DNA of 57,961 bases from an uncultured Candidatus Saccharibacteria bacterium (GCA_964361595.1 CAYIAX010000001.1:164128-222088); one strand, 5' to 3'. Shown: positions 44,865 through 46,568, numbered from the stretch's first letter. Made by a program: numbers and translations. Notes: generated by a model from the letters alone, not told the origin.

Positions 44865-46568
44865 TTATGCAACTTCACTGTTGTAACAACTCTCGCAATA
44901 AACGATTTCCGGCCGGTCGGGGGCGTAAGTGGTTTGAATCGCCGCACCGCATTTTGCACAGGTTCGATCCCATAATTTGGGTGGGTTGATGCGTGAATGG
45001 CGATTTCGATCCCGGCAGTCCGAACATTTTCGGGGCAGCGGCAAATTAAATCGACGCAAGAGGTCCAGTTCTGCTTTGATGACCTTATACGGCCTCGAGC
45101 ATTCAAGGCAACCGAGAATTTCATCCAGGATTTCGTCTCCAATTTCGTTTATTCTGTCCGGAATCGATCCGGCGGGAAGAGTAACTTGATATTTTGGCGA
45201 TTCCGGTTCCCGCCAGCGCCAACCTAGCTCAAGCACTGTTTCTTTAGCGGCAGGAATATATTCAATCGCAACGGTCTCGTTGTAATCATACGGGCTGAAG
45301 TCGTAGGGGAAATATTCACCATATTTAAAAACTCTCCCCCGATTATCCATGTATGGGTGGGTATTCATATCTTCGATTATTTTTTGGCGCAATGCTTCGT
45401 AATCTGTTTTCGCATAGGGTCTATTTAAAATGCAGTATTCCTTACTCTTGATATTGGCACAACCGAACATGTGAGATGACGAAAGCGTAAACATTGAATA
45501 TTCCACATCCAAAGACGGAAACCAAACGCCGAAACAAAACCGTACGTTGCTTGCGCCCTCGCCAACGGTTGCGGATTCATAAATACGCTCGGCGCCGTTC
45601 CCCCATTCGGAATGGTCATAACAGTCTTTTGCGGTTTTCATCGTGATGAATTGGCAAAACTTGCAATCTTCAGCAAATCGGCATTGGTACATATAACGAG
45701 AATTTTTACATTGGTGAATATAATCCCCCGAAGAATTGACATTCATCAGACCATGGTTAAATTTATGCGGAGATTTTTGCCAGAATGCTCGCGCTTGTGA
45801 AATTAGCTCTTGGATTGAACTATAAGAATCCAAGTTGAATTCTCTGATTTTTTGTTCATATTCTTCTTTTGTATATTGCTGGTTCCAAATACAGTAACTT
45901 TTATTGCGCAAATTCACGCAACCGAAACAGTTAGTGCATCCCGTCAGTAATTTTGAAAAATACACATCGTGGCAACTCATGCAATCCTCGGCATAAAATA
46001 CTCGAGAACATTTGCCGCAATTGATGTTTTCATAACAGAGCTCTGATTCTCCCAGCATTGTACAATCCATCGAATCTTTGTTATTGACCAGTACTTTTGA
46101 GTAGAGAACATTCTCGCAGTAATCGGCATTGAAAATCAAATAGCAGTTTTTGGAATTTCCAGCATGGTTTATATATTCGCTGTTTACAAGTTGCTGGTAA
46201 CTCGTAATCAAACTCATGTATGGAGTTCTAAGTTGTAATTCTCTAAATTGTTCGAAAAACGGCCGCGCCGGATCATATTCGCGCCCGTATTCAAGCGGAT
46301 CCCATTTATCCGACCACCAGCAGGGCTGGCAGTAAACAGTCAAAGGCTTATCGGGAGCAAACACAGTAACTATGTCTTTACCGCAAAGTCCGCATTTTCG
46401 TTTATAGAGGCGCCGCTCGTTTCTAAACATCAGTCGACGCTGAAATCGGCATTGCGGGCAAAAAGTCGGCGGGGGTACTTGCATCCGCTCATAAAATCCG
46501 AAATCCTCCGGTTCAATTATGAATTCCTGTTTGCAGTTCTGGCACGTCCGGCGTTCGGAAGTCGACAT
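44865..46568 (-). CDS. Cys-rich multi-zinc-ribbon protein, paralogue P8 (567 aa)
   Basis: Family layout with 36 Cys by my manual count. Short-type C-terminus CAKCGAAIQTTYAPDRPEIVYCESC. Starts 6 nt after the pepA stop. Confidence 0.85.
   Translation of the reverse strand: MSTSERRTCQNCKQEFIIEPEDFGFYERMQVPPPTFCPQCRFQRRLMFRNERRLYKRKCGLCGKDIVTVFAPDKPLTVYCQPCWWSDKWDPLEYGREYDPARPFFEQFRELQLRTPYMSLITSYQQLVNSEYINHAGNSKNCYLIFNADYCENVLYSKVLVNNKDSMDCTMLGESELCYENINCGKCSRVFYAEDCMSCHDVYFSKLLTGCTNCFGCVNLRNKSYCIWNQQYTKEEYEQKIREFNLDSYSSIQELISQARAFWQKSPHKFNHGLMNVNSSGDYIHQCKNSRYMYQCRFAEDCKFCQFITMKTAKDCYDHSEWGNGAERIYESATVGEGASNVRFCFGVWFPSLDVEYSMFTLSSSHMFGCANIKSKEYCILNRPYAKTDYEALRQKIIEDMNTHPYMDNRGRVFKYGEYFPYDFSPYDYNETVAIEYIPAAKETVLELGWRWREPESPKYQVTLPAGSIPDRINEIGDEILDEILGCLECSRPYKVIKAELDLLRRFNLPLPRKCSDCRDRNRHSRINPPKLWDRTCAKCGAAIQTTYAPDRPEIVYCESCYNSEVA

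Follow-up and report, generated by a model that had tools for sequence, protein, structure and literature searches.

The P8 gene and its domain order

The window analyzed here is a stretch of 57,961 nucleotides from an uncultured Candidatus Saccharibacteria bacterium (GCA_964361595.1 CAYIAX010000001.1:164128-222088), and positions 44865..46568 on its minus strand correspond to exactly one open reading frame (ORF), P8, with the stop codon included. The product of 567 amino acids contains 36 Cys and 9 His, the number of Cys being the same as that counted in the original prediction, which was made from this DNA sequence without database searches. P8 is one of nine paralogs (P1 to P9), eight besides P8, which are all located inside the window and take about 15 kb of it, and the family is unnamed in the databases searched.

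The domain order of P8 is assigned with high confidence as a double zinc module, a unit of helix, beta-solenoid with 12-residue coils and helix that is repeated twice, an acidic alpha/beta domain, and a second double zinc module. Each terminal module consists of four CxxC knuckles, arranged as a zf_Tbcl-like finger with 24 residues between its knuckles (x24), an arginine-rich helix, and a zf_Tbcl_2 ribbon with 17 residues between its knuckles (x17). The acidic alpha/beta domain (residues 404-480; 45129..45359, minus strand) is conserved, with invariant G417, P421, Y429, and G449, and was modeled with a predicted local distance difference test score (pLDDT) of ~90-96, and it gave no match in Pfam or the PDB. 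P8 is acidic outside the terminal modules and also as a whole, and its C-terminus (...PDRPEIVYCExCYxxEV) is highly conserved. When the PDB was searched by sequence with the whole protein, only weak LIM/CRP matches were obtained (E ~0.006), all from the C-terminal fingers. No signal peptide was found, and because P8 includes no hydrophobic segment (maximum Kyte-Doolittle value, KD19, of 0.95) and its zinc module begins as early as residue 9, the protein can be securely predicted to be cytoplasmic.

Zinc modules at both ends of P8

The N-terminal module (residues 9-83) reads CQNC-x24-CPQC-x18-CGLC-x17-CQPC and the C-terminal module (residues 487-561) CLEC-x24-CSDC-x18-CAKC-x17-CESC, with identical 24/18/17 spacing at the two ends; the motifs and spacings listed in the original prediction were thus reproduced exactly by pattern search. 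On the minus strand, the N-terminal x24 ribbon (CQNC-x24-CPQC, residues 9-40) is encoded by 46449..46544 and is followed by the Arg-rich helix (CRFQRRLMFRNERRLYKRK), and the x17 ribbon (CGLC-x17-CQPC, residues 59-83) is encoded by 46320..46394. At the C-terminal end, the x24 ribbon (CLEC-x24-CSDC, residues 487-518; 45015..45110, minus strand), which can be aligned with the N-terminal x24 ribbon without gaps, precedes the x17 ribbon (CAKC-x17-CESC, residues 537-561; 44886..44960, minus strand). Among 277 homologs, to which the conservation values below also refer unless another number is given, the finger Cys are conserved in 91-95% (N-terminal x24), 88-99% (C-terminal x24), and 95-97% (C-terminal x17), and the N-terminal x17 finger is degenerate in ~30% of the family members.

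The relationship between the two modules was examined by three methods, all agreeing with the prediction that a like pair of zinc ribbons is present at both termini. BLASTP gave 33% identity over 79 ungapped residues. When only the 71 non-Cys columns were scored, the similarity was still high (z = 7.7), and none of 20,000 shuffles reached the same score. Profile-profile comparison by hhalign, using profiles drawn from a family alignment of 52 sequences, gave a probability of 99.6% and an E-value of 5.5e-24 over 84 columns, and all four cross-controls, in which the N- or C-terminal module was compared with core half A or B, were non-significant.

The C-terminal x17 ribbon passes the gathering threshold of Pfam PF23477 (zf_Tbcl_2) with 31-31.5 bits against 27, and the N-terminal x17 ribbon stays below it with 24.3 bits. 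As to TIGR04272, which had been named for this ribbon in the original prediction, the domain itself was correctly recognized, as judged from the PF23477 match of the C-terminal ribbon, but the best-scoring stretch of P8, again the C-terminal x17 ribbon, reached only 25.9 bits (E 6e-6) against the curated NCBIfam cut-off of 36. The threshold of 24 bits for PF13451 (zf_Tbcl) was reached neither by the N-terminal x24 finger (19.7 bits, E 8.6e-4, aligned with profile positions 5-44 of 48) nor by that of P9 (18 bits), and the C-terminal x24 finger gave no match with this model. In the Foldseek search of BFVD, viral zinc-ribbon models were superposed on the ribbons of P8 at 0.8-1.0 A over ~42 residues.

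Two forms of the C-terminal module are present among the paralogs. The short form, an exact CxxC-x17-CxxC, is carried by P5, P8, and P9, and the long form, CxC-(20-23 amino acids with HxHG)-C-x17-CxxC, by P1, P3, P4, P6, and P7. This division had been noticed in the original prediction, and it holds except for P2, which had been counted as a long form; P2 resembles the long form but has a degenerate last knuckle (YYEQC). In the long variant, for instance at residues ~540-594 of P7 (42790-42950), the first x17 knuckle is converted into CxC plus HxHG plus C, the HxH being kept in 68 of 72 long-form homologs with 22 as the commonest insert length. The seven potential ligands thus provided suggest that the long variant may form a different or an additional zinc site.

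The terminal modules are mildly basic, with family median net charges of +2 and +5, and the core has a value of -5. The CxxC-x17-CxxC domain of small proteins from Methanosarcina mazei is known to bind Zn as detected by inductively coupled plasma mass spectrometry (PMC12704099). Each terminal module of P8 would hold two Zn2+, giving a predicted total of four structural Zn ions per protein.

The solenoid core

Between the two zinc modules lie two homologous halves, half A (residues 127-232; 45873..46190, minus strand), with approximately eight coils of 12 residues and ending in GCTNCFGCVNLRNKSYCIWNQQY, and half B (residues 273-385; 45414..45752, minus strand), with coils of 12-13 residues and ending in FGC(370)ANIKSKEYC(379)ILNRPY. 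The internal duplication of the core, as originally described, is supported by hhalign, which aligned half A with half B at a probability of 99.8% and an E-value of 4.9e-28 over 132 columns, so that hhalign similarity was significant both between the terminal pairs and between the core halves. The short Cys-punctuated units of the core noted there do not represent a row of metal sites, since autocorrelation, the mod-3 phase of Cys, and covariation together identify them as coils of a 12-residue beta-solenoid.

The autocorrelation of the half A profile was high at all multiples of 3, with the maximum at 12 and then at 24 and 36, and no periodic signal was detected by the same analysis in a control region. 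All 12 Cys of P8 half A fall into one mod-3 phase, for which the probability by chance is ~(1/3)^11 = 6e-6, and a single phase was also observed in seven of the eight paralogs analyzed, as well as for the whole set of 23 family columns with variable Cys. When half A is written in rows of 12, positions 1, 4, 7, and 10 are enriched in Cys, Ser, Ala, Gly, Thr, and Val. Covariation was analyzed by mutual information with average product correction (MI-APC) for 542 non-identical members. In half A, 25 of the 40 strongest pairs are located exactly at i/i+12, such pairs representing only ~1.8% of all those scored, and in half B, 24 of the top 40 pairs are separated by 11-14 residues. Coupling at a constant separation indicates the parallel stacking of successive coils, because an antiparallel meander would not give such a pattern.

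The full-length AlphaFold (AF2) model (pLDDT 83; predicted template modeling score, pTM, 0.84) includes beta-bridges at ~167, 179, 191, 203, 214, and 227, that is, 12 residues apart, and the core-only AF2 model, made with a deeper alignment, shows regular short strands (pLDDT 85), with the pLDDT of half B exceeding 90. In the Foldseek search with the core model, all five matches with E-values of 0.001 or less were parallel beta-helix proteins (a putative acetyltransferase, LpxD, and LpxA), and the top 50 (E 3.6e-4 to ~4e-2) were mostly of this class, with GlmU and gamma-carbonic anhydrase further down. This likeness is one of local geometry and not of family membership. The full-length model gave no neighbor in the PDB at E < 3 by Foldseek, and in BFVD only its zinc-ribbon parts were matched; the half-A profile, when searched by sequence against the PDB, retrieved only a RING finger (E 0.67).

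With the high confidence given above for the architecture as a whole, the two core halves are regarded as beta-solenoids of stacked 12-residue coils, in which every third residue points toward a very narrow lumen. The inward orientation of these residues is proposed by analogy with the beetle antifreeze protein (PMC8038014).

Conservation of core cysteines

Most of the core Cys, which are replaceable by Ser, Val, or Ala, are conserved in 25-75% of the homologs. The presence of Cys at one position correlates only weakly with that at another (phi <= 0.46), and these correlations seem to reflect a division of the family into Cys-rich and Cys-poor subfamilies. This variability, the kind of replacements, and the weak correlation indicate that the core Cys behave as small residues lining the lumen rather than as dedicated ligands. 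A small set is conserved to a higher level, namely C142 (83%), C211 (93%), C214 (96%), C217 (86%), C370 (96%), and C379 (85%).

Three of these conserved residues form the motif C211-x2-C214-x2-C217 (CTNCFGC at residues 211-217; 45918..45938, minus strand) within the coil 208/211/214/217, whose Cys are conserved better as a set than any others of the core. Position 208 is Cys in ~65% of the members (64-67%); all four positions are Cys in 50% of the 542 members, and at least three of the four in 92%. As noted in the original prediction, the C-x2-C-x2-C of half A is accompanied by a Cys located 9-10 residues downstream, which was identified as C226, nine residues past C217. Position 226 is Cys in ~30%, His in 34-38%, and Tyr in 23-24% of the members, Cys and His together amounting to 66%, and the presence of C217 is associated with Cys or His at 226 at an odds ratio of 7.5. 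The half-B counterparts of C211 and C214 are not conserved. A zinc site bridging the two halves was also considered and was dropped, because no coupling was found by co-occurrence analysis between the conserved Cys of half A and C370/C379.

The suggestion that the half-A motif could ligate an iron-sulfur (Fe-S) cluster gained no homology support. Among 27 half-A sequences compared with Fe-S family models, the best match was Fer4_6 at E 0.54 for a single sequence, and no radical-SAM, SPASM, or rubredoxin match was obtained; the P8 core includes neither CxxCxxCxxxCP nor CxxxCxxC cluster motif, its own motif being CxxCxxC(xxC), and the Cys at 226 is present in only the minority of members given above. 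An Fe-S cluster in the core is thus not supported from the sequence side, and one extra metal site on the all-Cys coil 208/211/214/217 is possible.

Paralogs within the window

On the minus strand, P8 is followed by P7 (42790-44574; 594 amino acids), P6 (40937-42694; 585 amino acids), and P5 (39199-40899; 566 amino acids), and is preceded by P9 (48526-50196; 556 amino acids). Apart from this array, P3 (27488-29266) and P4 (29493-31208) form a pair on the minus strand (span 27488..31208), and P1 (main ORF 17228-18805) and P2 (19011-20804) a pair on the plus strand (span 17000..20804). The paralogs show 40-47% identity to P8, and full-length orthologs of P8 in Patescibacteria 52-61%. Since the orthologs are closer to P8 than are its neighbors in the window, the duplications must be old and the subfamilies conserved. 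The paralogs diverge mostly within the solenoids, at coil positions 8-12, and the constant parts are coil positions 2-6 and the alpha/beta domain.

Two of the nine genes are disrupted in their reading frames. The N-terminal zinc module of P1 (MTSEIRNCQNCHKEF...CNPCWWSDK) is intact, but is encoded in a frame different from that of the remaining gene (~17000-17290), so that the gene either is a pseudogene with a frameshift or was misassembled close to the WWSDKW motif. In the case of P4, the start is lost by a 1-nt indel that separates the ATG and the first CxxC knuckle (CKNC; 31209-31260, minus strand) from the main frame; the indel sits in a run of seven A (ATGAGCCAAAAAAACAAAC), and removal of one A restores MSQKTNNCKNC.... 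P3 and P4 are placed between murG (26101-27237) and ftsW (31342-32448), all on the minus strand (span 26101-32448), thereby interrupting what is normally a contiguous cluster of cell-division and cell-wall genes.

No RNA genes were found in the whole window by Rfam and tRNA scans, and a scan for promoters and terminators around P8 yielded nothing informative above the shuffled expectation.

Family size and distribution

A word-indexed search gave 6,501 matches among 8,000 candidates scored, and the named organisms were nearly all Patescibacteria. All of the source names of these homologs were "hypothetical protein" except for one automatic name, "Zn ribbon nucleic-acid-binding protein." By profile search, 5,511 clusters at 50% identity were obtained at E <= 1e-3 and 2,274 at E <= 1e-30, and nearly all of the best 150 profile matches were aligned over the full length. 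The 79 distinct loci from species-representative genomes were all titled as Patescibacteria or unclassified bacterium, the named groups including Jorgensen-, Giovannoni-, Staskawicz-, Nomura-, Niyogi-, and Sungii-bacteria. As far as it was found, the family is confined to Patescibacteria, mostly with Paceibacteria-type names. In 51 of 82 loci, two to ten copies are present on the same strand within 10 kb on each side, and the stop codon of one copy often overlaps the start codon of the next. Searches of PADLOC and PHROGs with the family proteins yielded no match, and no description was found in the literature on this family, on its Pfam or TIGRFAM identifiers, or on Cys-rich or zinc-ribbon families in Patescibacteria. 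One homolog of 731 amino acids from outside the window (P0265) carries an N-terminal GNAT domain (residues 42-140) fused to the full architecture, a single case that is possibly a fusion made by gene calling.

Gene organization around the family

The window represents ordinary chromosome, with murC, murG, ftsW, gltX, fmt, secD, trmD, comEC, and a gene for M17 aminopeptidase. The genes on the minus strand are arranged in the order of a protein with sigma-70 region 4 and HARE-HTH domains, a 452-amino-acid protein, an ORF of 170 amino acids, VirD4-like ATPase 1, P9, CutA1, M17 aminopeptidase, P8, P7, P6, P5, VirD4-like ATPase 2, and TrmD. ATPase 1 (50531..51997, minus strand), which resembles type IV coupling proteins (T4CPs) and matches PF10412, PF02534, and PF12696, is located directly upstream of the array, and the 452-amino-acid partner (52755..54113, minus strand) lies upstream of this ATPase. 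At the other end of the array is ATPase 2 (37132..39015, minus strand), also T4CP-like, which carries its own CxxC-x17-CxxC at residues 464-496. This ribbon is canonical (53.8 bits with TIGR04272, passing the cut-off of 36, and 51.6 bits with PF23477) and is followed by a long low-complexity tail; the same type of ribbon was found in 19 of 49 such ATPases across the loci.

The association of the family with these ATPases was examined in both directions. When the neighbors in the 79 family-centered loci were clustered, the T4CP-like ATPase ranked first, with a copy no more than 10 kb away in 31 loci that span many candidate phyla; of the 49 ATPase ORFs counted, 48 share the strand of the family genes and 30 are separated from them by no more than 600 nt. 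The reverse test was started from orthologs of ATPase 1 taken from an independent set of metagenomes. A family member was found downstream in 38 of the 46 loci with enough sequence (within 600 nt in 24), and upstream in only three of 54, and at 48 of 54 loci the 452-amino-acid partner preceded the ATPase. Patescibacteria genomes are roughly 1 Mb in size. A total of 5,713 VirD4 homologs have been identified in 2,918 Patescibacteria genomes (~2 per genome), of which 148 are near virB4, and it has been proposed that Patescibacterial T4CPs may have been exapted to serve other functions (PMC12102498). By our own arithmetic, assuming genomes of ~1 Mb, the chance of a VirD4 homolog in a random 20-kb window is ~4%. 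No VirB4-, VirB6-, or VirB8-type family was detected when ~30 ORFs of the window were compared with Pfam.

The gene for M17 leucyl aminopeptidase (46575..48047, minus strand) ends only 6 nt before the P8 start, and these two genes are therefore probably co-transcribed; the adjacency of an M17-family gene recurs in three loci (L001, L009, and L073). Between P9 and this gene lies a homolog of CutA1 (divalent-ion tolerance; 48052..48354, minus strand; phmmer E 5.5e-28), and in 12 of 79 other loci CutA1 is a same-strand neighbor of a family member, which it immediately precedes in nine of them. The protein with sigma-70 region 4 and HARE-HTH domains (54275-55306, minus strand) is encoded upstream of the partner-ATPase pair and has homologs in eight of 79 loci. 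ATPase 1 and the 452-amino-acid protein match the C- and N-terminal parts, respectively, of a single phage protein family, phrog_5156 (824 positions; E 7e-58 and 1e-10), and resemble one protein that has been divided between two genes. Far from the array, a 1,519-amino-acid protein with a Gly_rich_2 domain (382-4941, plus strand) and a 697-amino-acid cohesin/Ig-like protein with apparent transmembrane segments (6870-8963, plus strand) are probably surface proteins unrelated to the P8 family.

Comparison with known proteins

With PF23477 and TIGR04272, P8 shares the spacing of exactly 17 and the flanking residues (..YAPDRPEIVYC..C), but the domain has been described from small proteins that stand alone or from C-terminal tails, whereas in P8 the ribbon is one of four fingers within 567 amino acids and occurs twice. 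The x24 fingers resemble PF13451 (zf_Tbcl, "probable treble clef") in the CxxC-(~24)-CxxCR arrangement and in the aromatic or acidic segment between the knuckles, and they differ in that the C-terminal finger, although clearly homologous to the N-terminal one, is not matched by this model. Two consecutive zinc fingers are also found in LIM/CRP proteins, and the C-terminal module matches CRP2 at E 0.006 and Pfam LIM at 18 bits; these matches are below the threshold, the ligand pattern and spacing are different, and LIM domains are eukaryotic protein-interaction modules.

As to the core, the beetle antifreeze protein (AFP) TmAFP (1EZG) has 12 residues per coil in an out-in-out-out-in pattern, with C2, S5, C8, and A11 directed inward, and this 12-residue consensus was not identified in fish, plant, fungal, or bacterial AFPs (PMC8038014). 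The P8 core is similar to TmAFP (Pfam PF02420, consensus TCTxSxNCxxAx) in its 12-residue coils and in the presence of Cys, Ser, or Ala at every third position, and precomputed "faint" PF02420 matches exist for a paralog in L001 and L002. No match at E <= 10 was obtained between PF02420 and the 27 half-A sequences, no PDB sequence match was found, and 1EZG was absent from the best 50 Foldseek matches of the core model. Unlike TmAFP, the rows of P8 lack the Thr-Cys-Thr ice-binding ladder, the Cys are only partly conserved and do not follow the strict i/i+6 disulfide pattern, and the protein is bacterial, cytoplasmic, without signal peptide, duplicated, and flanked by helices and zinc modules. 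An antifreeze or secreted disulfide protein was rejected on account of the lack of signal peptide, the lack of a TCT face, and the zinc modules at both ends. The left-handed parallel beta-helix enzymes (LpxA, LpxD, GlmU, and gamma-carbonic anhydrase) share the local geometry of a parallel beta-solenoid, but these hexapeptide-repeat enzymes have coils of 18 residues as against 12 in P8. Membership in this group was rejected on the basis of the period of 12, the lack of a Pfam hexapeptide match and of acyltransferase residues, and template modeling (TM) scores of 0.1-0.15.

The flanking ATPases are similar to the orphan T4CPs of Patescibacteria in carrying TrwB_AAD_bind, T4SS-DNA_transf, and TraG-D_C, and they fit the published T4CP genes that are distant from virB4 (PMC12102498). 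The literature searched contains no mention of a T4CP paired with a 452-amino-acid upstream partner or with downstream Cys-rich arrays.

Discussion

The best overall explanation of these observations, to which we give a probability of about one-half, is that P8 is a cytoplasmic zinc-capped solenoid protein acting together with the flanking ATPase. Because the arrays lie directly downstream of the ATPase and its partner, and because ATPase 2, which closes the array, carries the same x17 ribbon, the family proteins are tentatively proposed to be adaptors or substrates of this T4CP-like ATPase system as their common partner, a proposal that we hold at somewhat less than even odds. The terminal modules and the alpha/beta domain would form a constant chassis that docks on a shared partner or on nucleic acid, and the variable face of the solenoid, at coil positions 8-12, would carry paralog-specific recognition. 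Toward the VirD4-like ATPase, the zinc modules might thus serve as docking elements and the solenoids as specificity elements. Most of the core Cys would pack the lumen, and the coil 208/211/214/217 together with C370 and C379 would cap the halves and may hold one further metal.

Several observations weigh against this explanation. No characterized homolog was found that ties the family to any function, and the nucleic-acid binding included in the model is hinted at only by the basic Arg-rich linkers and the one automatic source name. The AF2 confidence for half A falls to 49-74 in places, and Foldseek TM scores to beta-helices are ~0.1 (0.1-0.15) with root-mean-square deviations of 17-24 A; with such low TM scores, the assignment of the fold class depends for the most part on the periodicity and covariation of the sequence. 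In approximately 60% of the family-centered loci, the surrounding 10 kb on each side lack an ATPase, and only one copy of the family is present at 31 of the 82 loci (L003, for example). In addition, the ATPase orthologs used in the reverse test are 76-88% identical to the ATPase in the window and represent a limited clade, and gene order among related small genomes may be inherited synteny rather than a sign of function.

If the ATPases are set aside, the basic zinc modules could clamp DNA or RNA at a spacing set by the rigid solenoid, with the paralogs recognizing different targets like a set of RNA chaperones, nucleoid proteins, or regulators. Such an independent nucleic-acid-binding factor is in line with the Arg-rich helices between ribbons, the net positive terminal modules, the weak TFIIB-type ribbon and LIM matches, the automatic name cited above, the recurrence of RNA and translation genes (RluA-type pseudouridine synthase, L19, and TrmD) among the neighbors, and the maintenance of ortholog groups across genomes (61% identity to orthologs against 40-47% to paralogs). 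We consider it unlikely, since the net charge of the modules is modest (+2 to +5) on an acidic protein, no recognized DNA- or RNA-binding domain was found, and the directional order of ATPase and then array is left unexplained. The gene order (31 of 79 and 38 of 46 loci) could be accommodated equally by a model in which the family proteins are translocated cargo, exported or delivered to hosts as effector-like proteins through the T4CP-like ATPase and a membrane partner with the conserved C-terminal module as the signal; T4CPs are substrate receptors (PMC12102498), and expanded paralog arrays are typical of effector repertoires. Tightly folded multi-zinc proteins, however, are poor substrates for an unfolding translocon, the ~30 ORFs scanned include none of the VirB4/VirB6/VirB8-type families, the paralog subfamilies are old and conserved instead of fast-evolving, and a t4cp homologue was reported to be non-essential for epibiotic growth in Ca. 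S. epibionticum ML1 (PMC12102498), which together make cargo quite unlikely.

The Cys of the core invite another explanation, in which the CxxCxxC(xxC) coil with C226 or C370/C379 ligates [4Fe-4S], [2Fe-2S], or rubredoxin-type iron and the lumen participates in electron transfer or thiol chemistry. The 86-96% conservation of C211, C214, and C217, the Cys at i, i+3, i+6, and i+9 in half of the members, the coupling of C217 to Cys or His at 226 (odds ratio 7.5), and the recurrent neighbor CutA1, a metal-tolerance gene, would fit this idea. It is rendered improbable by the lack of a significant Fer4 match (one of 27 at E 0.54) or of any radical-SAM, SPASM, or rubredoxin match, by the absence of CxxCxxCxxxCP from P8, by the frequencies at position 226 (Cys only ~30%, Tyr ~24%), by the unconserved half-B equivalents of C211 and C214, by the free exchange of the remaining core Cys with Ser, Val, and Ala (phi <= 0.46), and by the binding of Zn and not Fe to the related x17 domain (PMC12704099). 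The ATPases also match, though weakly, the PADLOC mad8 and HerA models (E 1e-14 to 1e-7) as well as the phage family phrog_5156 (E 1e-55 to 1e-58), and the tandem diversified arrays might then be sets of sensors in an anti-phage or conflict system around a HerA/FtsK-type ATPase. This is very improbable, given that the family matches neither PADLOC nor PHROGs, that the arrays are placed among housekeeping genes (murG/ftsW, trmD, and gltX) with conserved orthology and synteny, and that no nuclease or other effector domain was found.

Returning to a zinc-capped solenoid protein that works with the flanking ATPase, a more far-reaching version may be considered, doubtful as it is, in which Paceibacteria have repurposed the orphan coupling ATPase, the 452-amino-acid partner, and the arrays as an unrecognized system of translocation or substrate handling. 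The paralogs would be its specificity adaptors or its cargo, and the core would be the first bacterial cytoplasmic 12-residue Cys-lined beta-helix, of a type otherwise found only in beetle antifreeze proteins, possibly with a metal in the all-Cys coil.

The separate components, namely zinc ribbons, beta-solenoids, and T4CP ATPases, are each of a known kind. What is undescribed in the family databases and papers searched is the combination of these parts, the bacterial cytoplasmic Cys-lined coil of 12 residues, the scale of the family, and the linkage to orphan T4CPs. The domain map explains the cysteine pattern of P8 by four zinc fingers and a Cys-lined 12-residue solenoid, the core fold of which may have arisen in bacteria by convergence on the helix of beetle antifreeze proteins. 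The conserved gene order ties the family to orphan VirD4-like ATPases, making the roles of both testable as one hypothesis and raising the question of whether the family proteins and the ATPases interact, and what is moved or bound. With at least 2,274 clusters (50% identity, E <= 1e-30) and arrays that reach ten copies in other genomes, a family so large and so conserved probably has a central role in the biology of these reduced organisms.

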